From the IMG/VR virus record IMGVR_UViG_3300027969_000341, positions 1 through 28,660 of that record: a stretch of 28,660 nucleotides of DNA, one strand, 5' to 3'. This document shows, piece after piece, positions 2 through 28,660 of the stretch (positions within the stretch are counted from its first letter, which is position 1; every line of letters starts with the position of its first letter). The notes beneath the pieces were generated by a model. The model saw only the letters and a list, made by a program, of their open reading frames with translations. It was not told where the DNA came from and did not search any database. The DNA comes from a virus. Taxonomy: Duplodnaviria; Caudoviricetes. The position numbers and the translations under genes were made by a program.

Positions 2-133
2 TACGGGAGTGTAAATATGGGAGGTTTAACCGGTGTGTTAGCTGTGTCGTTAGCAGGCGGTAACGTAAGATTGACAGTTAGCCCTTCTAGTAGTAATGCA
101 ACTGTGTGGACTACACAGTTTAATACAATTTAA
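2..133 (+). CDS. 3' end of a phage fibre-type structural protein (truncated by window edge)
   Basis: Frame from nt 2 reads YGSVNMGGLTGVLAVSLAGGNVRLTVSPSSSNATVWTTQFNTI* (TAA 131-133). It resembles the C-terminus of 6134..7357 (YG...VSTSIAGGNVNL...). Not in the ORF track because the start lies outside the window. Confidence 0.8.
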   Translation, partial: YGSVNMGGLTGVLAVSLAGGNVRLTVSPSSSNATVWTTQFNTI

Positions 134-152
134 GAGAGCCAGATAAAAGTTT

Positions 153-3100
153 ATGGCATTAAAAAAGTTTAATTCGATAGCAGGGTATTCAGTAGGACTA
201 GAACCCACAATTGAAGTTGTTGACAGCAATGGTAATATAATAGCCAATACCCTAGAAGTTACAAACTTTGCAAACTTGGGTAGCATAAGCAATATCAGCA
301 TCTTGGGAGGCAACCCAGACCAAGTAGTTGCTACTGATGGATTTGGTACATTGTTCTTTAAAGATGCGGCACTAACCTTACCCGGTGGTAGCAATCAATC
401 TATTCAATTTAATAATGACGGTGTATTTGCCGGCGATGCTAATCTAACATACAATAATACTACCGGAGCACTTACTGCTACATCATTTGCTGGTAATGGT
501 ATTGGTATATCATACCTTGCAGGGGCAAACGTATTTGGTGAAGTTTCTAACGCAAACTATGCAACCTATGCATTGGTCACTCTCAATAGTACTCAATCTA
601 ATACTTCAACTACCGTTATTGGTAATTACCAACCAAACATTACTCAAGTTGGCAATTTAGCTAATTTAACAGTCACTGGAGCACTAATTGCTAATTCATC
701 ACTAATTGTTGGTGGTGACGCAACAATCACCGGTAACTTAATTGTTGAAGGTAATGCAATTTATGCTGACGTAGAAACATTACGTATAGAGAATCCAATA
801 ATGCAGTTGGGTTCTAACCCAACAGGTGGTGTACTAACTGAAGCGGATGAGTATAATGCCCGCGGTACATTAATGCATTATTTTACTACAAGTGCAGTAG
901 ATGCATTTGTTGGATGGGATGATACAAATCAAGAATTTTCTGTTGCAAGTAACGTAAGCTTAGTTGCAAATACATTAATCATACACGAATATGGTAATTT
1001 AAAAGCTAATTACTTTGTTGGTGATGGCAGTAGAATATCAAATATTTTTGGCGCAAACGTTACTGGGTTTGTACCTAATGCAGTTTATGCAAATGCCGCA
1101 ACAACTTCGGGAGTTGCAAATACAGTTAACGATTCAGCACAGCCAAACATTAGAAGCTTTGGTACTCTTACGAGTTTAGCAGTTAGCCCTACAGTTAATC
1201 CAAGTCTTGGTAATGTAGTAACTGCTAATTTCTTTGTTGGTAATGGTTATAGATTATTCAACATTACAGGTGGAAATGTAGTAGGTGATGTACCAAATGC
1301 AACATATGCAGTAAGTGCAGGAACAAGTTTATTAGCAGGACATGTTACCGCAGCCGACCAAGGAAATATAACAAGTCTTGGAAGATTGAATAGTTTAATT
1401 GTTGATGGTCCTATTACATCACAAAGTGCAAATCTTGGCGGTAGTGTTACAGCTACTCACATTATTGGTGAAGGTGGCAATTTAAGCAATATTACCGGGG
1501 CCAACGTAACTGGTAAAGTAGCAAATGCAATATTCTCAGATAACGCAGGATTGGCCGAGTATGTAACTCAAGGAACTCAATCAAATATTACAGGCGTTGG
1601 TACATTAACAAGTTTAACAGTAACCGGTGTTGTAACTTCCGGTAGTGCTAATTTAGGAGATGCAGTTAGGGGTAATTTCTTCATCGGTGATGGTAGTAAT
1701 CTTGCTAATATCAACGGTGCAAACGTAACCGGTAAAGCTGCTAATGCAATATTTTCTGATAATGCTGAAAATGCAAATTATGCAAATTTTGCAGGTAATG
1801 TAGTAATAGGAGATCAACCTAATATTACCGGAGTTGGACTACTGACATTATTGAATGTTCAAGGTAATCTAACTACAGGAAATGCTGACTTAGGTAACGC
1901 AGTAACTGCTAATTTCTTTATTGGAAATGCTACATACCTTGCAAATATTACCGGTGCAAATGTTGTTGGTAACGTTAACTTAGCTAAACAAGCTAACACT
2001 GCAAATTTTGCAAATATTTCAAATACTGCATTACGTGCAGGCACAGTCACTACAAACTATCAACCCAATATTACTAGCGTGGGTACCTTAACAGATTTAA
2101 TTGTTTCAGGAAACATAAACGTTTCTAATATATCCGCTAGTGATACAATCACTGGTACTTACTTAGCCGGAGATGGTTATCAAATTTCTAATATCAATGG
2201 TGCAAACATTGAAAGTGATGTAGCTAATGCAAACTATGCTAATTTTGCAGGATCAAGTTTAACAGCAGATAGTGCATATATTGCTAATTTGGTTTATAAT
2301 AATGTTCAACCAAACATTAACGAACTTGGTATATTAAATTTCTTAACTGTCAATGGTCCTACTGCACTAGACACCTTTACTGCTAATAGCGGAATTGTTA
2401 GTGGAATGCTAACTATTGGAAATGTTGCAGGTGAAGCATCAGGGTTGTATAATGTTTACGGACCAAACGTAACTAACAAAGTATCAAATGCTGTGTTTGC
2501 AGACAATGCAGGACAATCTAACGTTGCTAATTATGCAATACACATTACAGGAAACAATCAACCAAACATAACTAATGTAGGTACTCTTGTTGATTTGGAT
2601 GTAAGCGGAGTTGTTACATTTGGACAAAATCTAACCGTTACTGGATTACTAGCAGCCGGATATTTAGCCGGTGATGGTAGTAATATATCAAATATTGCTG
2701 GTGGAAATGTTACTGGAAGTGTAGCAAATGCAGTTTATGCTGATGAAGCTGGGCACTCAGCAACCTCTGACTTAGCAACACAGGCTACTGTTGCTAATAC
2801 TGTTTCTGATAATGCACAACCTAATATTACTAGTTTAGGAACACTAACTAGTTTAACATTAGTTGGGGAACAATCAGTAACTGGCAACGTAGTAGTTTCT
2901 GGAAATATTACTGCAAACAATTTCATATCTACTAACATGTCAGGTGTGTTTAGTGGCGATGTTACAATCGTCGGAGCAAACGGTGCTATACTTTTTAACG
3001 ATGCCGGGTACCTTAAATCAGCAAACTTTTTATTATTTAATAAAACATCAAATACATTAACAGTTCCTGGCAATTTAAACGTTAGTAATAATATCACACG

Positions 3101-6100
3101 TGATGGAAAAACAGTACCAACATTTGTAACACAGGCAACCGCACCTGCCAATGCTAAATTAGGAGACCAGTGGTTAGATACAGATACTACTAAGGTTTAT
3201 CAATTTTTTAGAGACCCGCAAAATCTTTCTTACGCATGGGTCGATATTAGTACCGGTTTCATTAATTCAAATACAGAAGCTACCGGAAGTACAATTGTAT
3301 TACGTGATCCACAAGGTAACATATCTTCAAATAATTTATCTGTAATCGGAGATGCTTCTATTCTAGGCAATTTAGATGTTAAAGGTGCAGTAACTTATAT
3401 TCAAAGTTCTGTAACTTACGTGACAGATCCAATAACTGAAATTGGTGGAGGGGAAGATGGTAATCCATTAATATCAAACAATAATATGGATCGTGGTACA
3501 CTAATTCATAATTACACCACAACACCAATTGATGCATTTATAGGATGGGACACTAGTAATGCAGAATTTGCATTAGGCAGTAATGTATCAGTAACGAACA
3601 ATGTTGTAACTTTTAACGAGTACGGTACACTAAGAGTTGGAAATATAATTGTAGAACAAAACGCCAACATTGATGGCAATATTGTTATTAACGGGTCTAT
3701 TAGTGTTACCGGTGGAATTTCTGGTAGCGTAGGTAATGTAATCCCATTGGGAGGCCCAGTAGATGCAGACTTAGTATCACCCGGATCAATAACTTCATGG
3801 ACAACGGAAACTAAAGTGACTGATGCAATTGATGATTTAAATGAAGCACTTGAAAACGTGCGAAATAATACGTATGTTAAGAGTGTTAGCTTTACCGGTA
3901 CCCCAACAGCAGGTGGTGCAGGTACACTAGTAACACTAACAATTACAAGTGTAGGCAATCCAAATCGATATGATATTAATTGGGGTGATGGTACTTACAG
4001 TAATAACACTAGTTCTACTACACCAACTCATACTTACGCAACCAATGTAGACAGCCCATTTGATGTGACAGTCAGAGCATATAACAACGGTGGCTCTGGT
4101 AAAGGTAGCGAAGCAAGTTTTACCCGGGCAGATTATATTGTAATTTATACTGCTAATCCAGTAGTAAGTTTTGGCTTGTACAGAGGTATTACAGGTGGTA
4201 GTGCATTGTCAGGTATCTCATTATATGTGAGCGAAGGTGAAACATTCTATTTAGATAATACTACTACAAATACTACAGGTGCTACAGTAACTTATACAAT
4301 TAATTGGGGTGATAGTTCTACCCCGGACACAATTAGTAGTGATAGTGTAGCCGGTGGTGTCGGTGGTGGACGAATTAGCCATATGTATGCTACCGGACAA
4401 AACTCTGGTACTGGTACAAAAACAATTACATTGACACTAAACAGTCATAACACAGCAACTCCAGCATATATTGCAACAGGACCAAATAGTACTTCTGCTA
4501 TTAAGATTTATAACCCAAGCATTACTGCACCAAATGGGTTGAGTAGTAAAACAACAGTAGCGTTCCAAGCAAGTGTTGGAACAAGCCCGTATCTTGCAGC
4601 CAACTTTGCTAATAACACAGGTGGTGCAGTTACTATTACAGCAGGATCAAGTGTTAGTCGTGTGACTACAGGAACTCCAGTAGAGACAATCGTACTGTCA
4701 ACTTATGCTTACAACGGCGACAGTGGATATCTACGTGCTTTTGTTAACGGCAGCGAAGAGGGCAATATTACATTGACTACTGGCAGTCAAGTTGGTACTA
4801 ATAGTTCATTGGTTCTATCAGCAGAAAGCGACTATAATTTATTAGATGCTAACGGAACATCAATTGCATTTAGTGCATCAATTTACAGTCCTTCATTATA
4901 TAAAGGCTTTACAGCAAAAGTTTCTAAGACAAACTCTGCACTGACTGTTGGAGTAAACAACTTTAAACTAAGTCATACAACTACAGGTAATACAAATATT
5001 GTTGAATTTGTAAAAGACGATGTAACAAGCGTACCAACTGTTGATGTATCAGTCGCCACAATCAGTAATGCAACAAACGGAACATATCGTTATGTTTCGG
5101 GTATCCCGTATTACAACACAGGTAGCCCAACAATCACAATGACTGGTGCAAATATATATAACTGGATTGGTCAAACATATAGAAATACAACTACTCCATT
5201 CCAAATTGAAGCCGGAACTAATGATGAAAGTACAACAGGAAACGTAATTGCTACACAAACTAAAACATATGCTAACTTAGACGGGGCGACTACGTTCTTA
5301 TCTAGTAGTATACCAAAAGCTAATACAGGTAACACAATTAGCAATCAATATACAATTGGTAGTCAAACAATTACTGTTGCTGGCGTAGCTAGTGTAGCCG
5401 CAGTTCAGACTATTAAGTTCTTAGCAGTTAACGTTAATGGTTCAAGCGCATACGCAACACATACTAAAAAGATTCAAGTTTTTACTGCTACCCCATCAGG
5501 ATTTGTAGAAGATAATATCACTTGTACTATCCCAATTGGTGCAGTAGCAAACAGTAATGCTGCCAAACGTATTGTAATTGCTAGCGCAACAGGCGCTACT
5601 CCAGTGTATGTAACAGCTACAAATTATTATACAAACAGTCTATGGTCTGGCGCTCAAACAGTAGCAGGCACTGATGAAGCTATTGTTCGTTTCAATACAT
5701 TAAAGAATTTTGCAACTGACTTGTCAACTGGTTACTTGCCCGCAGGTCCTGACTTATCAACTGGACGTAGTGGTACACAGTACTTTAGAGGTGCTTTTGT
5801 AAGAGCAAGTAAGAGTAGCTTTAATATTACTATAACAGGTAAAATTTCTGGATTGCGTTTTGCAGTACCAGGAGTAACAGATTCACTACCATATGCAACT
5901 AACGGATGGTTAGACGCTAATCAGCCTTACTTTGGCGCTGGTGTAGCAGGAGCAAATGATAGCGGATGTGCTGATGGTTCAGTTGTACCAACTGGATCGG
6001 TAATATCCGGGGCAACGTACAAAATAACGTTTGGTGAAGGTAGTACAAGTTCATCGGGAAATTCAGGTAATCAAGTACTGTTTAGTATTGCACTAGCATC

Positions 6101-6134
6101 AAGTGATTATATTACATCATGGAGCTTTAGTTAA
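153..6134 (+). CDS. Giant (1993 aa) virion fibre/structural protein: repetitive N-terminal shaft, two PKD-like Ig domains, C-terminal globular region
   Basis: Nine QPNITxxGxLxxL-type repeats, two DPI/DRG/GWD modules and a GDQW...WVD motif. A short helical segment (VTDAIDDLNEALENV) precedes two INWGD motifs (Trp codons at 3981 and 4305) resembling PKD domains. Stop overlaps the next start (TAATG). Confidence 0.85.
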   Translation: MALKKFNSIAGYSVGLEPTIEVVDSNGNIIANTLEVTNFANLGSISNISILGGNPDQVVATDGFGTLFFKDAALTLPGGSNQSIQFNNDGVFAGDANLTYNNTTGALTATSFAGNGIGISYLAGANVFGEVSNANYATYALVTLNSTQSNTSTTVIGNYQPNITQVGNLANLTVTGALIANSSLIVGGDATITGNLIVEGNAIYADVETLRIENPIMQLGSNPTGGVLTEADEYNARGTLMHYFTTSAVDAFVGWDDTNQEFSVASNVSLVANTLIIHEYGNLKANYFVGDGSRISNIFGANVTGFVPNAVYANAATTSGVANTVNDSAQPNIRSFGTLTSLAVSPTVNPSLGNVVTANFFVGNGYRLFNITGGNVVGDVPNATYAVSAGTSLLAGHVTAADQGNITSLGRLNSLIVDGPITSQSANLGGSVTATHIIGEGGNLSNITGANVTGKVANAIFSDNAGLAEYVTQGTQSNITGVGTLTSLTVTGVVTSGSANLGDAVRGNFFIGDGSNLANINGANVTGKAANAIFSDNAENANYANFAGNVVIGDQPNITGVGLLTLLNVQGNLTTGNADLGNAVTANFFIGNATYLANITGANVVGNVNLAKQANTANFANISNTALRAGTVTTNYQPNITSVGTLTDLIVSGNINVSNISASDTITGTYLAGDGYQISNINGANIESDVANANYANFAGSSLTADSAYIANLVYNNVQPNINELGILNFLTVNGPTALDTFTANSGIVSGMLTIGNVAGEASGLYNVYGPNVTNKVSNAVFADNAGQSNVANYAIHITGNNQPNITNVGTLVDLDVSGVVTFGQNLTVTGLLAAGYLAGDGSNISNIAGGNVTGSVANAVYADEAGHSATSDLATQATVANTVSDNAQPNITSLGTLTSLTLVGEQSVTGNVVVSGNITANNFISTNMSGVFSGDVTIVGANGAILFNDAGYLKSANFLLFNKTSNTLTVPGNLNVSNNITRDGKTVPTFVTQATAPANAKLGDQWLDTDTTKVYQFFRDPQNLSYAWVDISTGFINSNTEATGSTIVLRDPQGNISSNNLSVIGDASILGNLDVKGAVTYIQSSVTYVTDPITEIGGGEDGNPLISNNNMDRGTLIHNYTTTPIDAFIGWDTSNAEFALGSNVSVTNNVVTFNEYGTLRVGNIIVEQNANIDGNIVINGSISVTGGISGSVGNVIPLGGPVDADLVSPGSITSWTTETKVTDAIDDLNEALENVRNNTYVKSVSFTGTPTAGGAGTLVTLTITSVGNPNRYDINWGDGTYSNNTSSTTPTHTYATNVDSPFDVTVRAYNNGGSGKGSEASFTRADYIVIYTANPVVSFGLYRGITGGSALSGISLYVSEGETFYLDNTTTNTTGATVTYTINWGDSSTPDTISSDSVAGGVGGGRISHMYATGQNSGTGTKTITLTLNSHNTATPAYIATGPNSTSAIKIYNPSITAPNGLSSKTTVAFQASVGTSPYLAANFANNTGGAVTITAGSSVSRVTTGTPVETIVLSTYAYNGDSGYLRAFVNGSEEGNITLTTGSQVGTNSSLVLSAESDYNLLDANGTSIAFSASIYSPSLYKGFTAKVSKTNSALTVGVNNFKLSHTTTGNTNIVEFVKDDVTSVPTVDVSVATISNATNGTYRYVSGIPYYNTGSPTITMTGANIYNWIGQTYRNTTTPFQIEAGTNDESTTGNVIATQTKTYANLDGATTFLSSSIPKANTGNTISNQYTIGSQTITVAGVASVAAVQTIKFLAVNVNGSSAYATHTKKIQVFTATPSGFVEDNITCTIPIGAVANSNAAKRIVIASATGATPVYVTATNYYTNSLWSGAQTVAGTDEAIVRFNTLKNFATDLSTGYLPAGPDLSTGRSGTQYFRGAFVRASKSSFNITITGKISGLRFAVPGVTDSLPYATNGWLDANQPYFGAGVAGANDSGCADGSVVPTGSVISGATYKITFGEGSTSSSGNSGNQVLFSIALASSDYITSWSFS

Positions 6135-7357
6135 TGGCTATTTCAGACTCACAAAAAGTTGATTATCTTTGGAAGAAAATAGCCTACGGTAAGACTAAGA
6201 CTGATTTAGGAACTATTAAACAGGGTTTTGAAGAAAGTATTTCTAGCCCGTTATTGATTCGTGGCGATAGAATTTGGCAACAATCAGGTAGTATTCCAGC
6301 AAGTATTGCAACATCAAGCGCAGTAGTAACTGTTTATTCAGGTGCAACAACAGTTGAATGTACAGAAGATATAACTGCCGCAGACAATAGAACATGGAAA
6401 ACTAATTATACGGATTGGATCAGTCCTGAGTTTGGTGCTGATTACATTATCAGCGTTTACATTGCTAATTCAGGAATTACAGGGTCAAATAAAACAACTC
6501 AAGTAACAATTGCTGGAAACAAGATTACGGCTGCGGGTGTAACAAGCCCAACTGCGCTTGATGACCAATGGTACTTTGACTACCAATCTGGTGTATTGCA
6601 CTTCATCGGAACAAACATCCCAACTGCCATTACAACTAATGTGACTGGTAAAAGTATTTACATTACTGGTGCAAGATATACAGGTGATTTAGGGTTTGGT
6701 TCAAGCGGTAGTTCTAGTATTTCAAATGCGACTTTGGGTAATTTAAACATTACCGGAAATACAATCAGTAGTCTTAATACAAATGATAATATTGTTATTG
6801 ACCCGAATGGTACCGGTAATATTTTATTGATTGCCAATACGTCAATCACCGGAACAATAAGCATTAATTCAACTGCTGATTCTAATTATGGCGCAATCAG
6901 CATAGGTAATGCAACAATTGCCGCAAATACAACAAGTGGAGCAGCCGGGATATTCACTGGAATAGGTTCGTCTGCAATTAGTAATATTACAATCGGAACA
7001 TCAAGTTCAACTGTAAAAGTTCCTGGTACACTAGCAACGGGAAGCATTGTTGGAAACAGTGCAAATATTACCATCGTTACTGACACACTGATTGATACCT
7101 TCCCAATCGCTACTTACAGAACTGCTAAATATATAATAAAAGTGTCAAATAGTGTAACTTATGAAGCACTAGAAGCATTAGTTATACATGATAATACAGA
7201 TAGTTATATCACTGTTTATGGATATATCAGTTCTGATGATACAGATATTGTAAGCGTAAGCACAAGTATAGCTGGTGGAAATGTAAATCTCTATGCTTCT
7301 AGGATTGGTGCAACTACCACAGTATTGAATTATTTGGCTACTTACATAAAAGATTGA
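6134..7357 (+). CDS. Phage virion structural protein (407 aa) with C-terminal TAKY...IHD...YG domain
   Basis: Translationally coupled to the upstream gene. Globular N-terminus (MAISDSQKVDYLWKK...QWYFDYQSGVLHF), short shaft, and C-terminal IDTF..ATYRTAKYIIKV...EALVIHDN...YG domain of a type common in large-phage fibre proteins. Confidence 0.8.
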   Translation: MAISDSQKVDYLWKKIAYGKTKTDLGTIKQGFEESISSPLLIRGDRIWQQSGSIPASIATSSAVVTVYSGATTVECTEDITAADNRTWKTNYTDWISPEFGADYIISVYIANSGITGSNKTTQVTIAGNKITAAGVTSPTALDDQWYFDYQSGVLHFIGTNIPTAITTNVTGKSIYITGARYTGDLGFGSSGSSSISNATLGNLNITGNTISSLNTNDNIVIDPNGTGNILLIANTSITGTISINSTADSNYGAISIGNATIAANTTSGAAGIFTGIGSSAISNITIGTSSSTVKVPGTLATGSIVGNSANITIVTDTLIDTFPIATYRTAKYIIKVSNSVTYEALEALVIHDNTDSYITVYGYISSDDTDIVSVSTSIAGGNVNLYASRIGATTTVLNYLATYIKD

Positions 7358-7370
7358 TAAGAATAAGAAG

Positions 7371-7898
7371 ATGACATATAAGAGTTTTAACGTTAAGCAA
7401 GGTTTTAGAACTGGTAATATAACCTTAGATGCCTCATCGGGTAACGCTAACGTAGCTAATATCACAGTCACTGATTTAGCTAATATTTCTGTTCTTAAAG
7501 TCAAAGATTATGTTGCTAGTAACCTAATCCCAAATGCAAATGCTACTTATTCTATAGGTAATGCAGCCAATAGATTTCAAAATATTGCGCTTTCGGGTAA
7601 TATTGATATTAATGGGTATTTAATAAATGCCAATGCAACAACCGCTACTTTTTCGGGAAATATTGTTGCAGATGGCGCAAATTTCAACGCTATATCAGTA
7701 AATAATACACTTACGATAAATAGTACTACAGACTCTACGTCCACGGTTACTGGCTCAATAGTCACTTCAGGGGGTGTAGGGATAGCTAAAGATTTAACTG
7801 TAGGTGGTAACATCAACTTAACTGGCGGCGGAACAACACCAAAAGGAAGTTTAGGTTACAACTCAGGGGTTGATAGCTTTGAATTTCAGTTTAAATAA
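7371..7898 (+). CDS. Short fibre segment protein (175 aa)
   Basis: N-terminal KSFNVKQG motif, LIPNANATYSIGN..NRF fibre motif and STS.VTG..V..GG.GI motif. C-terminal YNSGVDSFEFQFK resembles the C-terminus of 8898..13223. Confidence 0.8.
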   Translation: MTYKSFNVKQGFRTGNITLDASSGNANVANITVTDLANISVLKVKDYVASNLIPNANATYSIGNAANRFQNIALSGNIDINGYLINANATTATFSGNIVADGANFNAISVNNTLTINSTTDSTSTVTGSIVTSGGVGIAKDLTVGGNINLTGGGTTPKGSLGYNSGVDSFEFQFK

Positions 7899-7910: not shown

Positions 7911-8858
7911 ATGAGCGCACCGACAACAATTGGAGCAAGATTAAAAAATGATGGTACACTATACACTGCTGGTATTACACCTGGGGATTTAGATACCGGA
8001 TTTGATGAAGTTACTGGTTCTAATCACAAAGTTACAAAGACAAATATCTTTGCTGGTGAATTAGACGAAATTACATTGCCTTCAGGACAGCCCTCAGGTG
8101 GATCAATTTTATTAAATGGTACAACTCAGTATCTTTCATTAGCAGGTTCTGGAGATTTCCAGTTTGGTACAGACAATTTTACAATTGAAGGATGGTTCTA
8201 TTCAACTTCAGCTGCCTATCAACGTCTATGGTGTTTCCCAGACGGAGATAACGTTGAAGTAATGGGAACTCAAGTATTCTATTGGAAAGGTTCTGGCTCA
8301 CCAATTGGTAGCGGATCAAATTCTTTTTCTGCTAATGCTTGGACTCATATCGCATTAGTTAAAAGCGGTGGAGTAGCTAAAGTTTATATTAATGGTTTAG
8401 CAAGAATAGTAGATAACTCACCGTATGATTCACAAAGCTCACGTGCATTAGCAATTGGTGGTGAAGTTGATTTAGGTATTAGTGGACAAAGCCCAACAGT
8501 AGGTGTAAGAGATGGCTACTTTGTAGGTAAGATTACACAATTTAGAGTCGTAAAAGGCGTAGCAGTATACACTAACACTTTCAGTACACCAATTAATCCA
8601 TTACAAAAAACACAACTTTCAGGGGTAAACATAACTGCTATCACTGGAACAAGTACAAAACTATTATTAAAAGTAATAGATTCAAGTAGTTTAGTAACTG
8701 ACAGTTCGGATAGCACTCAGTCAGTTACAAATAACGGCAATGCAACATTTGATGCAAGTTCACCTTCATCAACAACATTCAACGGAGCAATGAAACAATT
8801 TAGAAATGGTAAATTGCTAGTTCAAAGTGAGTTTGACGAATATACAGGTATAGTGTAA
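7911..8858 (+). CDS. LamG/concanavalin A-like lectin domain protein, with the domain inserted in a small adaptor scaffold (315 aa)
   Basis: SD AAGGA upstream. FTIEGWFY...WTHIALVK...KVYING...LAIGG...YFVGKITQFRVVKGVAVY is a typical phage LamG-like signature. Both termini align with the 77-aa ORF 13235..13468. Confidence 0.85.
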   Translation: MSAPTTIGARLKNDGTLYTAGITPGDLDTGFDEVTGSNHKVTKTNIFAGELDEITLPSGQPSGGSILLNGTTQYLSLAGSGDFQFGTDNFTIEGWFYSTSAAYQRLWCFPDGDNVEVMGTQVFYWKGSGSPIGSGSNSFSANAWTHIALVKSGGVAKVYINGLARIVDNSPYDSQSSRALAIGGEVDLGISGQSPTVGVRDGYFVGKITQFRVVKGVAVYTNTFSTPINPLQKTQLSGVNITAITGTSTKLLLKVIDSSSLVTDSSDSTQSVTNNGNATFDASSPSSTTFNGAMKQFRNGKLLVQSEFDEYTGIV

Positions 8859-19738: not shown

Positions 19739-20095
19739 ATGGCACATTTTGCACAAATAGATGAAAATAACATTGTAAGACAAGTTCTTGTTATAGAACA
19801 AGCAGTAATTGATACTGGTTTGTTTGGAGATCCAAGTTCTTTCGTACAAACAAGTTATAACACACATGGTGGAGTACACAGTTTAGGTGGGACACCATTA
19901 AGAAAGAATTATGCTGGTATAGGATATACTTACGACTCTGGTCGTGACGCATTTATACCACCTAAACCATTCAATAGCTGGGTATTGAATGAAACTACAT
20001 GTCAGTATGATGCACCAGTTGCAATGCCAACTGATGAAAAAATGTATACATGGGATGAAGATTCAACTAGTTGGATTGAAGTCACAGATCAATAA
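19739..20095 (+). CDS. Conserved small phage protein (MAHFA...RKNYAGIGYTYD family), possible partner/chaperone of Gly-rich fibre tips (118 aa)
   Basis: SD AAGGA. MAHFAQID...QTSYNT.GG.H..GGTPLRKNYAGIGYTYD..RDAFIPPKPF.SW.LNE.TC...WDE is a family I recall downstream of Gly-rich genes in aquatic phages. Function is inferred, not established. Confidence 0.8.
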   Translation: MAHFAQIDENNIVRQVLVIEQAVIDTGLFGDPSSFVQTSYNTHGGVHSLGGTPLRKNYAGIGYTYDSGRDAFIPPKPFNSWVLNETTCQYDAPVAMPTDEKMYTWDEDSTSWIEVTDQ

Positions 20096-20134: not shown

Positions 20135-22615
20135 ATGTCACTATTAAAAATTAAACCGTTTAGCATAGACCAAACTGACACATTCACGTTTGCAAATGCC
20201 AATGTCGCCGCAAATCTATTCACTGGTAATGCTAACTTAGGTAATTTAGCTACTGCTAATTTCTTTAGTGGCAACGGTAATGCACTGTTCAGCATTCAGG
20301 GCGCTAACGTATCAGGTCAAGTAGCTAACGCAACTGTTGCCGGTACTGTATATACAAATGCTCAACCTAATATAACAAGTGTTGGTAGCTTAAGTGGATT
20401 AATAGTTAGTAATGCTACTGGTATAGTTGACTTTACTACAACTGCAAACGTAACGTTAGGTGGTGTAGCAAATTTACATATTGCCGGTGGCACTGATGGT
20501 CAATTCTTAAAAACTAATGGTTCAGGTGTCTTAACTTGGAGCGCAGTGGCAGCAGGTACGGGTAACGCAAATATTGCGGGCGCAAATACTCAAATTTTCT
20601 TCAATAATGCTAATAATTCATCGTTGGGAGCAAGTGCTAATTTAACGTTTGACTCAACTACTAAAACATTAACGGTAGATTTAATTTCTGCTAATGGTTC
20701 CGGATTAACAGCATTAGCTGGTGCTAACGTTACTGGAACAGTAGCAAATGCAAATAACTCAGCATATCTTGGTGGTACTATAGCTTCTAGCTATTTACTA
20801 ACTACAGGTACAGGTAGTTCTTTAACAGCAATTACAGGTGCAAATGTAACTGGTACTGTAAGTTCAGCAACAGTGGCAGCAAGTGCAAACTCGGTGACAG
20901 GTGGTAATGTATCAGGTCAAGTAGGTAATGCATTAATAGCCGGAACAGTATATACAAATGCTCAACCAAACATTACATCAGTTGGCACATTAAGTAGTTT
21001 AGATGTTACTGGTAATATTGCAAGTGGTAATGCAAATCTAGGTAATTTAGTTATAGCTAACTTCTTTAGTGGTAGTGGTGCTAATTTAACAAGCATTGCC
21101 GGTGCTAATGTCACTGGATTTGTTCCAAATGCAAATGTTGCAAATACTGCATTTGCTGTTACTGGTTCTAATGTATCAGGTCAAGTAGGTAATGCATTAA
21201 TTGCGGGTACTGTCTATACAAACGCACAACCTAATATCACTTCAGTCGGAACATTAAGTAGTTTAAGTGTTACAGGTGATATTGGAGGAGCCAATCTAAC
21301 ATTAACTGGTAATTTAATCGTAGGCGGAACAACAACTTCGGTCAACTCAACCGTTACACGTGTGGTTGATCCAATATTCGAATTAGGTGGCGGTGCAAAT
21401 GGTGCAGCATTAATCGGAGATGACAATAAAGACCGCGGTGTGTTATTGCATTACTATAGTGGCGGAGCCGCACTAGACGCATTCATGGGTTGGGATGATA
21501 GCAATGGTGAATTTGGTGTTGGTAGTAATGTATCTTTAACCGGTGAGGTAGTTACTTTCACTAGTTATGGTAATCTACGTGCTGATGTATATTTTGGTAA
21601 CGGTAGTCAGTTAACCGGAGTTTCAGCTACATCATCTTTTAAAATAGCAAACGGTACAAGTAATGTAAATATTGCTACAGTTGATGGTAATGTAACAGTG
21701 GGGGTTGGTGGTACTGCCGGTGTCGTAACAATATCAACTACTGGAGTCAACATCGCAGGTTATGCAAACTTGGGTAGTGGTAATTTAATAACAACCGGCA
21801 ACATAGAAGGTGGATATGTAATTGGTAATGGTAGTAGTTTAACCAGTCTGACTGGTGCTAATGTTACCGGACAAGTATCAAATGCATTAATATCAGGTAC
21901 TGTTTACACTAATGCTCAACCAAATATTACGTCAGTTGGTACTCTAACCGGAGTTACTAGTACAGGTATTATTAACTTAACTGGTACAAGTAATGTTGCA
22001 TTGGGTGCAATAAGCAATGTACATATCACCGGTGGTTCAGCAAACTACTTCTTAAAGACAGACGGATCGGGTGGACTAAGCTGGTCAGCATTACCTTCAA
22101 CTACAATCAGCGTTGATACATACACCGGTGACGGTACTTGGACAATGCAAACATTGAGTTCTACTCCAGTTAATATCAACTATACACTAGTTGCAATTGG
22201 TGGTGTATTTCAACCAAGAGATGCATATGCTTTAACTGGTGCAGTTATCACGTTTGATGATCCTCCACCAAATGGTGCTATCGTTGAAATCACAATAATT
22301 AATGGTGGTACAGCCGGATCATTGGGTTATGTTTATCAAGGCATTAATTCAAGCACTACTGCAATTTCAGGTGTACGATATTTAATAGATACTACAGCCG
22401 CCGTAACACTAACATTACCAGCATCAGCAAGTTTAGGTGATGAAGTTGGCATCATAGATGCTACAGGTAATGCAGGTACACAAAACATTACTATTGCAAG
22501 AAACGGTGGGAATATTGAAGGTTCTGCAAGTAATTTAACTCTTACTGTAAACCGTTCTGCAATTACTTTAGTTTATTACAATAGTACACAAGGTTGGGTT
22601 AAAACGCAAAGATAA
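20135..22615 (+). CDS. Repetitive fibre protein with YTGDG beta-domain and T4 gp34/gp10-like C-terminal domain (826 aa)
   Basis: N-terminal MSLLKIKPFSIDQTDTFTF, four TVYTNAQPNITSVG repeats, DPI/DRG/GWD module and 63-aa VDTYTGDG domain. C-terminal YLIDT...TLP...GD...NITIARNG...QGW. Confidence 0.85.
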   Translation: MSLLKIKPFSIDQTDTFTFANANVAANLFTGNANLGNLATANFFSGNGNALFSIQGANVSGQVANATVAGTVYTNAQPNITSVGSLSGLIVSNATGIVDFTTTANVTLGGVANLHIAGGTDGQFLKTNGSGVLTWSAVAAGTGNANIAGANTQIFFNNANNSSLGASANLTFDSTTKTLTVDLISANGSGLTALAGANVTGTVANANNSAYLGGTIASSYLLTTGTGSSLTAITGANVTGTVSSATVAASANSVTGGNVSGQVGNALIAGTVYTNAQPNITSVGTLSSLDVTGNIASGNANLGNLVIANFFSGSGANLTSIAGANVTGFVPNANVANTAFAVTGSNVSGQVGNALIAGTVYTNAQPNITSVGTLSSLSVTGDIGGANLTLTGNLIVGGTTTSVNSTVTRVVDPIFELGGGANGAALIGDDNKDRGVLLHYYSGGAALDAFMGWDDSNGEFGVGSNVSLTGEVVTFTSYGNLRADVYFGNGSQLTGVSATSSFKIANGTSNVNIATVDGNVTVGVGGTAGVVTISTTGVNIAGYANLGSGNLITTGNIEGGYVIGNGSSLTSLTGANVTGQVSNALISGTVYTNAQPNITSVGTLTGVTSTGIINLTGTSNVALGAISNVHITGGSANYFLKTDGSGGLSWSALPSTTISVDTYTGDGTWTMQTLSSTPVNINYTLVAIGGVFQPRDAYALTGAVITFDDPPPNGAIVEITIINGGTAGSLGYVYQGINSSTTAISGVRYLIDTTAAVTLTLPASASLGDEVGIIDATGNAGTQNITIARNGGNIEGSASNLTLTVNRSAITLVYYNSTQGWVKTQR
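20905..20937 (+). repeat. Intragenic exact 33-nt direct repeat (second copy 21169..21201)
   Basis: taatgtatcaggtcaagtaggtaatgcattaat occurs twice, 264 nt (88 codons) apart. Confidence 0.9.
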
Positions 22616-22636: not shown

Positions 22637-25570
22637 ATGGCATTAGAAAAAATAAGACCCAGAATAGTAGATGAGACCGGTAACTACACATTTAATAATG
22701 TAACAGCAACCGGAAACCTTGTCACCTTAAATGCTAATCTTGGTAATGTTGCACTTGCAAATTATGTAAAAACTGACAATCTATTATACGCTAATGGTGT
22801 TCCTTGGAATTTTGGAGGAGGCGGTGGCGGTGCAACAGTTGCAGGTACAAATACACAAGTACAATTTAATGACGGTGGTTCATTTGGTTCAAATGCAAAT
22901 TTTGTATTTGATAAAAGCACAAATAGGTTAACAGTAGATAACATAACTGCTAACGGTGCGGCATTAACTAATCTAACTGGTGCAAATATATCTGGTACGG
23001 TAGCAAATGCAAACTTTGCAGCCTATGCAGGTAATATCACATTAGCCGCACAAAGTAATATAACAAGTCTAGGGACATTAACAAGTTTATCTGTTACTGG
23101 AAATATTTCTACTGGTAATGCTAATCTTGGTAATTTAGTAATAGCAAATTTCTTTAGTGGTAGCGGTAATAATTTAAGTAATATTCAAGCCAGTAATATA
23201 ACAGGTGCAATAGCATATGCTACTACCGCTAACGCAGTAGCTGGTTCTAATGTATCCGGTGCAGTGTCATATGCCGCAACTGCTAATGCAGTAGCCGGCG
23301 GTAATGTAATGGGGCAGGTTGGTAATGCACTAGTTGCAGGTACAGTCTATACTGCGGCACAAACTAATATCACAAGCGTAGGCACGCTAACAAGCCTAAC
23401 AGTTACCGGTAACATCACGGGCGGCAATGCTAATTTGGGTAACGCAGTAACTGCTAATTACTTTATCGGTAATGGTGCATTGTTAACAGGTGTAGATACA
23501 TTAACTGTAGGTAATGCTGGATTTGCTGACGGTGCAAATTATATTTCAAATGGAACAAGTAATGTAAACACTCCAATAGCTAATGGTAATATTACAGTAA
23601 GTATAGGTGGTGTAGCAAACACAGTAGTATTCACATCAACTGGTATGAATGTCTCCGGTAATATCACTACTTCTGGTAGTGGTGGCAACCTATCTGGTGC
23701 AAACTATGTAATTGCTAATTACTTTACCGGTACATTAACAACAGCCGCACAACCCAATATTACGTCAGTTGGCACACTAACAAGTCTAATTGTTAGTGGT
23801 AATCTAACAGTATCAGGAACAACTACTACAGTTAATTCTACAACTACACGGGTAGTTGATCCAATATTTGAATTAGGTGGCGGAGCAAATGGCGCGGCAT
23901 TGGCAGCAGATGACAACAAAGACCGCGGCTTATTGTTACACTATTACAGTGGAGCGGCGCCAGTTGACGCATTTATTGGATGGGATGATTCAAACGCAGA
24001 ATTTGCATTTGGTAGCAATGTAGCAGTTACAAGTGAAGTTACAACATTCAATAGTTTAGGTAATGTACGTGCTAATTTCTTCTTGGGTAATGGTAGTCAG
24101 TTAACAGGTGTTTCAACAGCAATATCATTAGTTAATGGTAATAGTAACGTAGTAGTAGCCGCTAATAGTAATGTAACTATATCAGTAACAAGTGTAGCAA
24201 ACGTAGTAACTGTAACTTCAACTGGTGTAAACATTGCAGGTTATGCTAACTTAGGTAGTGGTAATCTAATAACTACGGGTAATGTCAATGCCGGGTTTAT
24301 AACAACTACAAGTAATATCAGTGTAGGTAGTAACTACTTCTTAGGTAATGGATTTTATTTAACGGGTATTGATGCTGCCGGACAACTTGCTAATGGTACT
24401 AGTAATATTAGAATACCAACAGCTGGTGCAAATATTACGTTCACAGTTAATGGCACAACAGCGGCTAATATAACAAGTACCGGCTTAGCATTATTAGGTA
24501 CAGGTAACGTAACTGCCGGTAATGTATATGCAAATGCGGGTACAATTGGAGCAAGTGCATTAGTTGGCACACTAAGTACAGCAAATCAATATAATGTAAC
24601 AAACGTAGGTACATTAGGTAACTTAGCAGTAACTAGCAACATAACATCTGGTAACGCTAACTTAGGTAACGCAGTCACTGCTAATTACTTTGTAGGTAAT
24701 GGTAGTCAGTTGACTGGTTTGGGTGGTGCAGGATATATCTTTAATGGTACTAGCAATGTCTTTATTGCAACTAGCGGTGGTAATGTAAGTTTCACGGTTG
24801 GTGGAGCTACAAATGTTTTAACAGTTGTTTCAGCTGGTGCAAATATTGGTGGTTATGCAAACGTAACAGGAAATCTTTCAGTTGTTGGTAACATTACTAG
24901 TGGAAATGCTAATTTAGGTAATGCAGTAGTTGCTAATTACTTTACTGGTAACTTCTATGGTAATGCTAATACAGCAGGCACAGTAATAACTGCGGCTCAG
25001 CCAAACATTACTTCTGTTGGTACATTAACAAGTCTAGATGTTTCTGGAACTGCAAACTTAGGTACGGCTAGTAACGTTAAAATTGGTGGCGGTGCAGCCG
25101 ATTATTTCTTAAAGACTGACGGTGGCGGTAATTTAAGTTGGGCAGTACCCGCAGGTGGCGGTGGTGGTGGCGGAACAAGTTTAACTTATACTTCAGCTAC
25201 CGCACCACCAGCAAGCGGTAACATTTTAGGTGACCAATGGTTTAACACATCAGGTAATATATTATACGAATTCATCAGTGATGGTTCGGCAAGTTATTGG
25301 GTTGATGTATCAAGTCCTACAACATCTACATCTACTCCAACAACATTAGATTTAGCAAATGTGTCTATAGCAGGCGGTAGTAATGGTCAAGCAATAGTAA
25401 GTAATGGCGCAGGTGGATTAAGTTTTGCAAATATATTTTTAAATATTACTGCACCCATAAGTAATACCGCAATAGGAACACCCGGACAAATGGCATATAG
25501 TAGTGGTAATTTGTATGTGTGTGTGGCCACTAATACTTGGGCTAAATTTAGCGGAACAACAAGTTGGTGA
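22637..25570 (+). CDS. Repetitive fibre protein (977 aa)
   Basis: N-terminal MALEKIRPRIVDETGNYTF, five QxNITS-type repeats, repeated GNANLGN.V.AN(Y/F)F.GNG, a DPI/DRG/GWD module and a GDQWFNT...YWVDVS motif. C-terminal GTPGQMAY...LYVCVATNTW motif. Confidence 0.85.
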   Translation: MALEKIRPRIVDETGNYTFNNVTATGNLVTLNANLGNVALANYVKTDNLLYANGVPWNFGGGGGGATVAGTNTQVQFNDGGSFGSNANFVFDKSTNRLTVDNITANGAALTNLTGANISGTVANANFAAYAGNITLAAQSNITSLGTLTSLSVTGNISTGNANLGNLVIANFFSGSGNNLSNIQASNITGAIAYATTANAVAGSNVSGAVSYAATANAVAGGNVMGQVGNALVAGTVYTAAQTNITSVGTLTSLTVTGNITGGNANLGNAVTANYFIGNGALLTGVDTLTVGNAGFADGANYISNGTSNVNTPIANGNITVSIGGVANTVVFTSTGMNVSGNITTSGSGGNLSGANYVIANYFTGTLTTAAQPNITSVGTLTSLIVSGNLTVSGTTTTVNSTTTRVVDPIFELGGGANGAALAADDNKDRGLLLHYYSGAAPVDAFIGWDDSNAEFAFGSNVAVTSEVTTFNSLGNVRANFFLGNGSQLTGVSTAISLVNGNSNVVVAANSNVTISVTSVANVVTVTSTGVNIAGYANLGSGNLITTGNVNAGFITTTSNISVGSNYFLGNGFYLTGIDAAGQLANGTSNIRIPTAGANITFTVNGTTAANITSTGLALLGTGNVTAGNVYANAGTIGASALVGTLSTANQYNVTNVGTLGNLAVTSNITSGNANLGNAVTANYFVGNGSQLTGLGGAGYIFNGTSNVFIATSGGNVSFTVGGATNVLTVVSAGANIGGYANVTGNLSVVGNITSGNANLGNAVVANYFTGNFYGNANTAGTVITAAQPNITSVGTLTSLDVSGTANLGTASNVKIGGGAADYFLKTDGGGNLSWAVPAGGGGGGGTSLTYTSATAPPASGNILGDQWFNTSGNILYEFISDGSASYWVDVSSPTTSTSTPTTLDLANVSIAGGSNGQAIVSNGAGGLSFANIFLNITAPISNTAIGTPGQMAYSSGNLYVCVATNTWAKFSGTTSW

Positions 25571-25571
25571 T

Positions 25572-25579: not shown

Positions 25580-25595
25580 TAGAATAAGGTAAAAA

Positions 25596-26432
25596 ATGGC
25601 ATTTCCAAGTAGTCCAGCAAATAATCAAGTAGCGGTACAAAATGGTATCACATATACCTACAACAGTACTTATAGTTCTTGGACACGTAATCCTGCTACA
25701 TTACCTACTTTAAGTGTATACATTGATACATTTACGGGTGATGGTATCTCAACAGCATTCACATTAAGTCTTACACCAGGTGGTGCAGACTTTATCAGTA
25801 TTAATATTGACGGTGTAAGTCAGTTAAAGTCAGCATATACATTATCAACTAACATAGTAACATTTACTGGTATACCTGATGTTGGTTCAATTATTGAAAT
25901 TAAGTCATGGAATGCGGCTACAGTTGGTGTGTTAACTGGATTAACATTTGATAGTTTTACTGGCGACGGCACTGACACTACATTTACATTAAGCACAAGC
26001 CCAACAAATAAAAACTATACACTAGTAACTGTTGGTGGTATCACACAAGAAAAAGTTAATTATAATGTAAGTGGAACAACACTAACATTTACTACAGCAC
26101 CCCCAAACAATGCACCAATTGAAGTAATGACGTTTGGTCCTGCGGTTAATTCTGGAATAGTGGGCGGCATTAATTCACAAGTACAATACAATAACTCAGG
26201 TGCATTGAGTGGTAGTGCAAACTTGACATTCAATAATACTTCTAACACGTTAGCAGTAACAAATATAGAAGTTACTGGAGCAAATTTAGGCTCTGCTAGT
26301 AACTTAGTAATTACAGGTGGAACAAACGGGCAATTGCTATCTAGCAATGGTTCAGGTGGAGTAAGTTGGACTAGTATAACTTCAACTATTAATTCTAGAG
26401 CCTTAGTAATGGGAATAATATTCGGAGGATAA
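25596..26432 (+). CDS. Connector-like protein with two tandem FTGDG beta-domains (278 aa)
   Basis: N-terminal MAFPSSPANNQ...GITYTY...W, two 63-aa FTGDG domains (25722..25910 and 25947..26135), C-terminal ALVMGIIFGG. Confidence 0.85.
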   Translation: MAFPSSPANNQVAVQNGITYTYNSTYSSWTRNPATLPTLSVYIDTFTGDGISTAFTLSLTPGGADFISINIDGVSQLKSAYTLSTNIVTFTGIPDVGSIIEIKSWNAATVGVLTGLTFDSFTGDGTDTTFTLSTSPTNKNYTLVTVGGITQEKVNYNVSGTTLTFTTAPPNNAPIEVMTFGPAVNSGIVGGINSQVQYNNSGALSGSANLTFNNTSNTLAVTNIEVTGANLGSASNLVITGGTNGQLLSSNGSGGVSWTSITSTINSRALVMGIIFGG

Positions 26433-26433
26433 T

Positions 26434-26784
26434 ATGGCAATACCAAATTTACTAAACACATCATCAGTTTATGGGCAATGTACAGGGAAAATTTTGACAA
26501 CTGGCAGTCAAGATATAATCACAAACACCACTAATCAAACTATTAAAATTAATACTTTTCTTGCTACTAATATTACTGCTAGCGCAGTAACAGTAACTAT
26601 TGGTTATTATGAGAATTCAACGACAACTACATTTTATATGTTATACCAGACTCAAGTGCCTGGAAATGGTTCACTAGACGTTTTTAATAGACCATTCTAT
26701 TTAAAAGAATCTGATAAAATTACTGCACTTGCTGGTGCGGGCACATCAATTCATGTAGTAGCTAGTTGGGAGTCATTAGCATAA
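26434..26784 (+). CDS. Small beta-rich phage protein (116 aa), adaptor-like
   Basis: SD GGAGG. MAIPNLLN...KIN.....N.....VTVTI...VP...SLDV...YL.E.D.I...VVASWE pattern. Stop overlaps the next ATG. Confidence 0.8.
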   Translation: MAIPNLLNTSSVYGQCTGKILTTGSQDIITNTTNQTIKINTFLATNITASAVTVTIGYYENSTTTTFYMLYQTQVPGNGSLDVFNRPFYLKESDKITALAGAGTSIHVVASWESLA

Positions 26785-27731
26785 TGCGTAGAGTCAATGG
26801 AAGCGTAATAGGACCAAAGGTACAAACTTCGGCTTCAGGCGCCATTGGCATATGGTCTTTGGGAGAAATGGCTTTATTACAAGTTAGTGGTAATTGGCCC
26901 ACACCAACATATTCTATTGATATAATTGCTGTAGGTGGAGGAGGCGGTGCCGGCGGCACTGATGGATCTACTTCCGGCGCGGGCGGCGGTGCCGGTAGCG
27001 CAGTTTATGGTACTATGACTGTATCAACATCACAAACATTAAGTGTTGTAGCTGGCGGGGGCGGTGGCGTAGGAGCATCAAGTACTACCGGTGGCGGCGG
27101 CTCAGCTGGAGCAAACGGCGGCGGCATTGGTGGTGGCGCTGGCGGATCCCCATCGTCAGGTGCTGGTGGCGGTGGCGGTGGATGGAGTGGAGTATACTCA
27201 GGAGCTACATATTACCTAGTTGCAGGCGGCGGTGGTGCCGCCGAAGGTACTGCAAATGATGTAGCAACACCCGGCGGAGGAAGTCAACCAAACGGAGCTA
27301 ATGGAACTAGTTTAACAGGTGGAAACGGAACGCAATACTCAGGTGATGGTGGCGGAGGTGGTGGAGGTGGTGGCGGATATTACGGTGGATTAGGACAGTC
27401 TAACCTAGCAACAAGTGGCCAAGCATCAGGTGGCGGAAACTATGCAAATGGAACTTATGTTACTGGTTCAAGTTTAAACAACGGTGGTTCAGGTGCTTCA
27501 CAACCCAGCGGTAGTAATCCCGGACTACCGCCATCTATATCATGGACTGGATATTCAAATGATGCCGGAAATGGTGGTAATGGCTCCGGAACTCCAACAT
27601 CAGGAACAGCAGGTAAAGTAATTATTCGTTATCTTGGTGCTCAACGAGGTAGTGGTGGTACATATTCTTCTTCGGGTGGCTATTCATATCACACATTTAC
27701 TGGAACTACTCCAGTGACATTTACAGCGTAA
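26784..27731 (+). CDS. Glycine-rich domain protein (315 aa from ATG 26784), candidate adhesin
   Basis: The track starts at TTG 26766, but ATG 26784 overlaps the upstream TAA (TAATG) and is the more likely start. N-terminal NGSVIG...GIWSL.E...WP, then IIAVGGGGG...GKVIIRY...GGYSYHTFT. Confidence 0.85.
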   Translation: MRRVNGSVIGPKVQTSASGAIGIWSLGEMALLQVSGNWPTPTYSIDIIAVGGGGGAGGTDGSTSGAGGGAGSAVYGTMTVSTSQTLSVVAGGGGGVGASSTTGGGGSAGANGGGIGGGAGGSPSSGAGGGGGGWSGVYSGATYYLVAGGGGAAEGTANDVATPGGGSQPNGANGTSLTGGNGTQYSGDGGGGGGGGGGYYGGLGQSNLATSGQASGGGNYANGTYVTGSSLNNGGSGASQPSGSNPGLPPSISWTGYSNDAGNGGNGSGTPTSGTAGKVIIRYLGAQRGSGGTYSSSGGYSYHTFTGTTPVTFTA

Positions 27732-27739
27732 GGAAATAT

Positions 27740-28309
27740 ATGCCATTAACAAAATTAGAACCATACATGGTAGACACAACAGAAACGTTTACGTTTGCTA
27801 ATACTACTGTAGGTAATATTATCGCTACAAACGTTACTTCATCGGGAACTGTATCAGCTAATACTGCAAATACAGTTACTGCATCTTCACAACCAACAAT
27901 AACAAGTGTGGGTACATTAACTGGATTAGACATTGCAGGTACATTAACATACAATGCAGTAGTTGAACCATTAGTTTATAAGACCGGTGCTACAGGAACA
28001 GTAGTGCATGATGTGTCGCAGGCAGCTACTTTCTATCATGCTAGTATGTCTAGTAATTTTACTGCTAGTTTTTCAAATGTTTCAACAGTCGATGCTAGAA
28101 TTACAACAGTTAGTTTGATATTATCACAAGGTGCAACGGCGTATGTACCAAATGCTAACGTAATCATTAATAGTAATTCACAGACTATAAAATGGTATGG
28201 AAATATAACTCCTTCGGGAACAGTAAACGGTACTGATGTTATAACATTTACCTTTATAAAAGCTAATAACAATTTCACTGCTTTTGGTCAATATGTATTT
28301 TTTATATAA
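27740..28309 (+). CDS. Short fibre protein with C-terminal beta-domain (189 aa)
   Basis: SD AAGGA. N-terminal MPLTKLEPYMVDTTETFTF (paralogous to the 20135 and 22637 N-termini), one QPTITSVGTL repeat, C-terminal ...LILSQG...IKW.G...P.GT..GTDVITF domain. Confidence 0.85.
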   Translation: MPLTKLEPYMVDTTETFTFANTTVGNIIATNVTSSGTVSANTANTVTASSQPTITSVGTLTGLDIAGTLTYNAVVEPLVYKTGATGTVVHDVSQAATFYHASMSSNFTASFSNVSTVDARITTVSLILSQGATAYVPNANVIINSNSQTIKWYGNITPSGTVNGTDVITFTFIKANNNFTAFGQYVFFI

Positions 28310-28311
28310 TT

Positions 28312-28660
28312 ATGCCTAGACTAAATTCTTTCAATAGCGGGTCGTTCGGGATGACCTCCTCATATGCACAAAGCCAGTCATATGCTATTGGTGGAAACTC
28401 TGAATATTTTTCCACAGTCTCAAATATTCGTTATAGAGTCCATGTATTCACTACAATTGGAATTTCAACTTTTATTAATCCTAATCCTAAATTAACTTTT
28501 GATTACTTGATTGTTGCCGGCGGCGGAGGTGGCGGCTATTGTAATCAAGGCGACGGGGGAGCCGGTGGAGGTGGCGCTGGCGGTTTAATTTATGTAACGG
28601 GTGCAACAATTGGAGTTGGAACATATTCTATAGTTGTCGGTGATGGTGGTTCAGCAGCCA
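28312..28660 (+). CDS. 5' part of a fourth glycine-rich domain protein (truncated by window edge)
   Basis: ATG 28312 is open to the window end: MPRLNSFNSGSFG...IGGN...RYRVHVFTT...FDYLIVAGGGGGG...GGGGAGGLIY...YSIVVGDGG. Absent from the ORF track because it has no stop in the window. Confidence 0.85.
   Translation, partial: MPRLNSFNSGSFGMTSSYAQSQSYAIGGNSEYFSTVSNIRYRVHVFTTIGISTFINPNPKLTFDYLIVAGGGGGGYCNQGDGGAGGGGAGGLIYVTGATIGVGTYSIVVGDGGSAA

Follow-up and report, generated by a model that had tools for sequence, protein, structure and literature searches.

The window analysed here is the whole of the IMG/VR virus record IMGVR_UViG_3300027969_000341 (28,660 bases). It contains 19 genes (g0–g18) on one strand, with intergenic spacing of −1 to 39 bases, g0 and g18 being cut by its ends, and forms the tail-fibre gene cluster of a PA5oct-like jumbo phage of the T4 superfamily with a genome of ~360 kb. 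The ends of its proteins fall into matched pairs, here called sockets (C-terminal or internal domains) and plugs (N-termini), and comparison of related clusters suggests that the matched ends probably bind one another, chaining the proteins in gene order into a long trunk that likely branches.

A preliminary description of this DNA had proposed three docking pairs, A, B and C, from recurring terminal motifs, and all three motif sets were located where it had put them. The A end YNSxxxSxxFxF closes g3 and g5, is followed each time by a three-repeat adaptor (g4 and g6), and the adaptor by the start MAxLxxGTRxYG (g5 and g7). The B end YG...AGGNVxL also occurs twice, in the open reading frame (ORF) at 2–133 (g0) and in g2, with the start KxFNxxxG(Y/F)xxG in g1 and g3. 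For pair C, four FTxxG domains (g8, g12 and twice in g14) and three plugs (g12, g13 and g17) were found, but socket and plug are adjacent only for g12 and g13; g8 is separated from g12 by three genes, and g14 from g17 by two. Five pairs are absent from that description, namely D (g1 to g2), E (g7 to g8), F (g13 to g14), H (g14 to g15) and I (g17 to g18). The two sockets that it had listed as lacking a partner are real. Counted within the window, whose contig is cut at both ends, there are two GDQW (F) domains for one MAFP-type start, and two gp34-like (G) ends for one matching start.

The main comparison comprised 25 mostly syntenic regions, which remained of 27 loaded after the near-duplicates G011 and L122 were dropped; near-identical or very short loci beyond these 27 were left out of the sample. 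From the 25 regions, 380 N-termini and 375 C-termini were clustered independently of the motifs described earlier. The A socket was followed by an adaptor in 40/41 cases, and the adaptor by an A plug in 41/41. The sole miss is in L123, where no adaptor ORF was called; at L123:353-584 an adaptor match spans 232 bases without a called ORF, and this copy appears frameshifted or mis-assembled. The two B classes were followed by their plugs in 23/24 and 17/18 cases, E in 22/22, D in 9/9 and C-terminal F, with its MAFP-type start, in 5/5. The figures for the distal pairs were 7/8 and 7/7 for H, 4/7 for I, and 11/18 for G, the last to two related starts. Given a C-terminus, the uncertainty of the next N-terminus was 0.115 bit (n = 160), compared with 1.26 bit (n = 177) when the C-terminus of a protein is predicted from its own N-terminus. 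This agrees with the proposal that shaft modules are shuffled while the junctions are kept.

These counts are not independent, because the 25 regions form one syntenic clade, and the search was therefore widened to other lineages. For the adaptor, 9 loci were picked from 27 returned, the rest being near-duplicates, known clade members or weak matches. All 11 adaptors in these loci are flanked by an A-type end on the upstream side and an A-type start on the downstream side (11/11); every one of these flanks outscores all 517 background termini, and the upstream bodies range from 233 to 1,732 amino acids (aa). For B, D and F, 74 unrelated loci were retrieved solely through a shaft module. In these loci 11/18 distinct B domains are followed by a B-type motif, compared with 2/513 other junctions, and by profile score the next starts of 8/18 B domains exceed the 99th percentile. 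The D plug comes next after D in 2/2 cases, and 6/9 F plugs stand behind an F-domain gene. The pairing of ends goes beyond chance, both within the clade and in other lineages. Three GVMAG-labelled records (L034, L042 and L063) have only the g3 shaft module in common with the cluster.

Pair B resembles the gp9-gp34 joint of T4. As modelled with AF2 (pLDDT 96), the B socket has the C-terminal beta-sandwich fold of T4 gp9. The top Foldseek match was T4 gp9 (1qex, E 3.6e-4), and superposition on residues 186-299 of 9f4a_LA (VIA) gave Z 10.3 and a root-mean-square deviation of 1.9 over 94 aligned residues. By sequence, phrog_967 matched 4/34 members (best E 1.2e-5) and PF23618 matched 1/34 (E 0.014), and a PDB sequence search with the socket gave no useful match. 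The partner of this socket appears to carry a gp34-like N-terminal plug. The T4 gp34 N-terminus scored above 303/303 background termini with a profile of the B3 plug and above 300/303 with a pooled profile, and with a profile built from distant B plugs 4/657 background termini equalled or exceeded it; a gapped hidden Markov model (HMM) of the plug gave no significant match to gp34. In excerpts of PMC10253068, the C-domain of T4 gp9 is described as binding the long fibre through the gp34 N-terminus.

Full clusters usually contain four B plugs and three B sockets, the first plug standing after the capsid gene or a small gene. An extra gene with a B-type C-domain and a gp9-type N-terminus (phrog_677) was found tens of kb away in 2/5 records searched, and the only complete record among the five has it. 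The baseplate-binding N-terminal segment of gp9 (PF07880 / phrog_677) is carried by this separate gene of 262-270 aa in G001 and G006, and was not found on g2 of the window or on the first chain gene of two relatives. The distant gp9-type protein is likely, judging by this homology, to anchor the orphan first B plug. Its gene lies on the strand opposite to the fibre cluster and outside any T4-like wedge operon, beside a gene that we take to be thymidylate-synthase-like.

Pair A resembles the T4 knee. The g6 protein consists of three repeats closing in a D-E motif, and g4 is the same core with a LamG domain inserted. Both have the layout of gp35, in that a small gene stands between fibre genes and encodes an N-/C-terminal core with an optional carbohydrate-binding insert; according to excerpts of bioRxiv 10.64898/2026.03.06.709160, residues 1-21 and 324-372 form the core of T4 gp35 and enclose a carbohydrate-binding insert. 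By position and layout the adaptor may act as gp35 does, and it is a candidate member of the kneecap family. With a profile of the A plug, which covers 12 residues only, 0/303 background termini score as high as the gp36 N-terminus. The g6 family had no match in Pfam, PHROG, NCBIfam or PDB, a PDB sequence search with the adaptor gave no useful match, and ESM Atlas returned only unnamed viral clusters for g6 (best 0.88). The monomer model of g6 was poor (pLDDT 55.6), below use for fold search, and the PDB copy searched is without a gp35 chain.

The adaptor family is broad, with 184 representatives at 50% clustering. Among 147 adaptors examined, 25 are standalone, 23 are split by an insert, 62 have cargo behind, 36 have cargo in front and one is internal. 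Such frequent fusion to other proteins suggests a general means of attaching monomeric cargo to fibre joints. In the set P0096-P0243, the adaptor often forms the C-terminal part of proteins reaching about 2,000 aa, or the N-terminal part of proteins of roughly 300 aa.

Socket-stop-plug blocks travel as cassettes by recombination inside shared shaft repeats. The segment from the B2 plug to the B3 socket is a single protein in G002, G008, G009, L021 and L118; a D joint divides it in the window, an E joint in G001, and D together with F in G010. The g7 segment terminates in E, F or D, each with its own plug next, and D, E and F joints are gained or lost as whole units among relatives. The D block of the window shares 76% DNA identity with the copy that L103 has at its g7 position, compared with about 67% with the syntenic copy; the E ends of the window share 81-83% protein identity with an upstream copy in G006, compared with 46-50% with the syntenic one. 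Socket and plug subtypes of E are concordant in 22/22 cases (three subtypes: 16, 4 and 2). Family searches with the D, E and F joints gave no informative match; for the E socket, a PDB sequence search returned only chance-like PknB matches, and ESM Atlas nothing.

The C domain is, by homology, a putative XD2-type branching domain, assigned via TSP4-N250 (excerpts of PMC8825819). Its profile matches structures of tailspikes and adaptors, namely residues 211-249 of 7rej/7rfo (CBA120 TSP4-N, E 1e-3), 9k4a (E 6.6e-9) and 7y22 (E 2.8e-13), and PF03906 matches g14 (E 1.6e-4). A short conserved N-terminal plug is present, and its likeness to MALxxLV of KP34 was judged by eye. When each plug was paired with the closest free upstream domain, 37/38 plugs were placed in 12 regions, and the similarity of sockets correlated with that of plugs (r 0.65, compared with 0.17 in within-genome shuffles, 0/1000). 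When MTTK-type starts were included post hoc, after inspection, 42/42 were matched in 14 regions, and the adjusted mutual information (AMI) between subtypes was 0.54, compared with a null of 0.16 (0/2000). The AMI was 0.54 for last-in-first-out pairing, 0.49 for nearest pairing and 0.38 for first-in-first-out pairing (a queue). The earlier suggestion that gene order approximates a traversal of the assembly tree fits this result, as C domains are best paired to later plugs last in, first out. Only 6/42 C pairs are adjacent, which rules out C as an adjacent-gene pair. Synteny inflates the co-variation figures; the subtype pairs nonetheless recur on different carriers, and a shared DNA junction is therefore no explanation. 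The G end gave matches to XD1 of gp9, gp10 and gp34.

These pairings suggest the following assembly. The trunk would start at the baseplate protein gp9, encoded outside the cluster, and continue through three B joints in series, at each of which a gp9 C-terminal-type socket would grip a gp34-type N-terminal plug. The next two joints, both A, would each consist of one three-repeat protein connecting two fibre trimers in the manner of T4 gp35, and one of the two would bear a lectin. D, E and F would be optional joints that split or lengthen a segment. For the window, g0 to g8 would be linked in order through B, D, B, A, A and E joints, with g8 as the presumed trunk end and first branch point. 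From g8 on, the XD2-like C domains would offer side sockets to the products of downstream genes that start with a short hydrophobic plug. The Gly-rich, TIG/Ig and LamG lectin parts would be tips contacting the host, g9, g10 and g16 being presumed tips of branches. Socket and plug would stay together because they bind.

Joints of the same family within a genome mostly differ in subtype, and the order of the trunk would therefore be set; the distal part looks partly redundant. In eight relatives the trunk comprises 9-11 genes and 4,204-6,595 aa, compared with 4 genes and 2,908 aa in T4, so that the longest is about double the T4 length in residues. Taking the rise per residue as equal to that of T4, the trunk would be ~300 nm long. 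The T4 long tail fibre measures about 145 nm. A true addressing code, in which at least six joint families with mutually exclusive subtypes direct 20-45 genes into one defined tree, is a possibility that we put forward tentatively. It is with similar doubt that we suggest, as part of such a code, a trunk some 6,000 residues long, about double the T4 leg, with branches laid out depth-first and rewired by cassette moves.

Several observations weigh against this model. Socket and plug of A, B, D, E and F are only 0-40 bases apart, so that linkage alone makes them co-vary; the shuffle nulls also keep the ancestry that the 25 syntenic regions share. Homology of the adaptor to gp35 is unsupported (hhalign 0.1%, no HMM or repeat-profile match), as is homology between the A socket and the C-terminus of gp34, since 226/303 background C-termini score as high with an ungapped profile. 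For the G end, XD1 is treated as a spacer in excerpts of PMC8825819 and PMC10253068. One-to-one pairing fails distally, in G005, G003, G008 and G006 and at the unpartnered F and G domains of the window; in G005, four G2-type starts stand behind a single G end, and C subtypes D1 and D5 occur twice in G003 and G008. The pairing could instead be a DNA effect only, in which shaft-repeat recombination and tandem duplication shift junction blocks whose ends never touch: cassette movement is real, the intergenic gaps are 0-39 bases and the data set is syntenic. Such an origin is very improbable. Paralogous joints within a genome have a four-fold-site identity of 0.30-0.46, compared with 0.36 by chance, and keep 24-66% of their amino acids; because the four-fold sites are near chance and these residues are kept, the joints are old and constrained as proteins. 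Recent tandem duplication as the sole cause is excluded by these near-saturated four-fold sites, both ends being conserved all the same. Moreover, C pairs co-vary though other genes intervene in 36/42, the first B plug fits a gp9 encoded tens of kb away, and B and C resemble domains known for binding such ends. The matched ends may instead be terminal modules, the C-terminal domains being trimerisation caps or sugar-binding tips of separate fibres and the N-terminal motifs docking independently on baseplate, sheath or head. The gp9-C fold indeed recurs as the C-terminal module of tailspikes in excerpts of PMC10253068 and bioRxiv 10.64898/2026.05.12.724579, and because tailspike C-terminal domains also match the B socket (Z 8.9 and 8.0), this fold alone is no proof of a socket. 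The cluster immediately follows the major capsid gene, and hair-like fibres on head and sheath are borne by relatives in the wider group (excerpts of PMC7824862). Separate docking would leave unexplained why one N-terminal class succeeds each C-terminal class on new bodies and at new positions, and why a segment can be either fused or split, and we regard it as extremely improbable.

Binding of matched ends could also be real and loosely specific, with any B plug taking gp9 or any B socket, and C sockets taking several plugs, to give mixed fibres of varied length and tips. Within a genome, B plugs from different positions share 56% identity, G006 carries two B3-type plugs and places a g0-type socket ahead of a B3-type plug, and the two D plugs of L103 are identical over their first 15 residues; the redundant distal plugs and repeated C subtypes point the same way. 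Against this, B sockets are only 24% identical within a genome and form position-specific subfamilies, and C subtypes predict plug subtypes. The two genomes with two E joints and the one with two D joints use differing subtypes, too few for significance (chance about 0.18 for E). We consider such loose specificity unlikely, and prefer chaining of matched ends in gene order. The claim that the locus encodes a larger docking system with several pairs is partly supported, by comparative genomics and homology, while a strict one-to-one code is not, given the redundant distal plugs and recurring C subtypes.

The T4 long tail fibre, (gp9)3-(gp34)3-gp35-(gp36)3-(gp37)3, is likewise an end-to-end fibre encoded by adjacent genes. 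The window shares with it the gp9 C-terminal fold and gp34-like plug, and a monomer-type knee gene between fibre genes with a gp36-like start behind; like gp35, g4 has a core built from both termini around a carbohydrate-binding insert (same bioRxiv excerpts). Unlike in T4, fibre proteins use the gp9-type socket three times, two knees are present, with a 77-aa adaptor without detectable gp35 homology, and the D, E and F joints are of no known family. The cluster also resembles the branched complexes of CBA120 (TSP4), G7C, KP32, KP34 and RaK2/phiK64-1, which combine a T4 gp10-like branching domain with a conserved N-terminal peptide. This pairing is modelled in PMC6872550 and proven for KP32 in PMC13352976, RaK2 is given a nine-protein tree from eight branching domains (PMC10253068), and the short hydrophobic plugs of the window recall MALxxLV of KP34 (PMC6872550). 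Unlike the Klebsiella and CBA120 systems, the window lacks depolymerase domains: no pectate-lyase-like family was found among its proteins, and LamG, TIG and Gly_rich_2 were found instead. Whereas those complexes have an N-terminal hub, the C sockets here are near the C-terminal ends of long shafts, and branching would therefore be serial; the co-variation of several socket subtypes with plug subtypes also sets the cluster apart. The fibre cloud of the chimallivirus Goslar, built of DUF7941, is similar in that jumbo-phage modules with host-recognition domains dock head-to-tail (excerpts of PMC13742148). Goslar uses one module family and forms heterogeneous filaments in that account, unlike the at least six joint families and conserved gene order here. 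The plug-and-socket principle is already published (T4, KP32/KP34, CBA120 and RaK2), and is less new than the preliminary description implied. In the literature searched, in which subscription journals were thinly covered, we found no report of serial gp9-type joints, of this adaptor family or of D, E or F joints.

The assignment to a PA5oct-like phage comes from relatives retrieved with g6, on contigs of up to 367 kb, one of them rated complete. In these relatives the fibre cluster begins immediately after the major capsid gene, and the major capsid protein is 67-68% identical to its counterparts in PA5oct and Vibrio phage 2.275.O. Neither g6 nor the first chain gene had a match in cultured phages, and no comparable cluster behind the capsid gene was seen in PA5oct, Vibrio 2.275.O or Phosso, judged from the annotation of those regions. 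An assembly artefact is unlikely, because a second, longer contig carries identical genes. The window proteins match tail and structural PHROG families, and low-complexity shaft modules common to many of them are combined in varied ways. The genes are listed in Table 1.

Table 1. Genes of the window and the distant gp9-type gene of two relatives (positions in bases; residues where stated).
Gene	Position	Strand	Size and features
g0	2..133	+	truncated 3' end of fibre gene; terminal B socket (gp9 C-terminal-like domain); full orthologue in G004 756 aa
g1	153..6134	+	1993 aa; B plug, shaft repeats, internal F (GDQW) domain 3117-3275, large C-terminal D socket domain (phrog_8578)
g2	6134..7357	+	407 aa; D plug domain (phrog_9417, residues 1-212), then C-terminal B socket 7070-7354
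g3	7371..7898	+	175 aa; B plug (subtype nearest of all to T4 gp34 N-terminus), short shaft, A socket
g4	7911..8858	+	315 aa; three-repeat adaptor, LamG lectin domain (PF13385, residues 69-215) between repeats 2 and 3
g5	8898..13223	+	1441 aa; A plug, long shaft, A socket
g6	13235..13468	+	77 aa; minimal three-repeat adaptor
g7	13495..15990	+	831 aa; A plug, shaft, C-terminal E socket domain (about 15598-15987)
g8	15992..17308	+	438 aa; E plug, shaft, C domain 16781-16984 (FTxxG, XD2-like; first of the window), C-terminal XD1-like G domain
g9	17308..18504	+	398 aa; IPT/TIG domain, Gly-rich domain (PF21722); N-terminus class found behind G domains in relatives
g10	18514..19722	+	402 aa; Gly-rich (PF21722) protein
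g11	19739..20095	+	118 aa; phrog_7759
g12	20135..22615	+	826 aa; C plug, shaft, C domain 22106-22303, G domain
g13	22637..25570	+	977 aa; C plug, shaft, F (GDQW) domain 25181-25336 near C-terminus
g14	25596..26432	+	278 aa; F plug, C domains 25716-25910 and 25938-26141, H-type C-terminus
g15	26434..26784	+	116 aa; small protein; class comes after the H-type end of g14 in 7/7 cases
g16	26784..27731	+	about 315 aa; Gly-rich protein
g17	27740..28309	+	189 aa; C plug, C-terminal I domain (weak match to tail-fibre phrog_9017)
g18	28312..28660	+	truncated; N-terminus class seen after I domains (4/7), Gly-rich domain
gp9-type gene	G001:90495-90767 and G006:346263-346523 (L166, L167)	-	gp9-type homology

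The g11 family is present in most clusters, mostly right ahead of a C-plug gene (8/9), and we take its product to resemble a fibre assembly chaperone. At the distal end (25596-28660 of the window, and in relatives), a short hydrophobic end is followed by a 110-123 aa protein and then by a Gly-rich protein. In relatives, an RRYPFS-type end is followed by a MAKH-type start in 3/3 cases, and in G004 the start of g14 and the end of g17 are united in one 400-aa protein. At 40018-45293 of the stitched G005 fibre region, four tandem genes with near-identical MAxYxxLKNA starts and differing bodies stand behind a single gene with a G end, possibly alternative tips competing for one site. The distal regions of G003 and G008 hold repeat proteins ending in W..ISAG..H.LA and, at the end of the cluster, LSGLPRSGST-like starts; these proteins are presumably RCC1-like and sulfotransferase-like.

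The architecture of phage fibres is usually learned by cryo-electron microscopy of cultured phages. If the pairing described here reflects binding, a very large adsorption apparatus would be readable from gene ends alone in uncultured jumbo phages. The T4 baseplate socket and knee would then be portable modules, and the lengthening of fibres and gain of tips would be explained by cassette exchange. Structural studies and nanofibre design would also gain natural protein couplers from these joints, among them a trimer-to-trimer adaptor of 77 residues.

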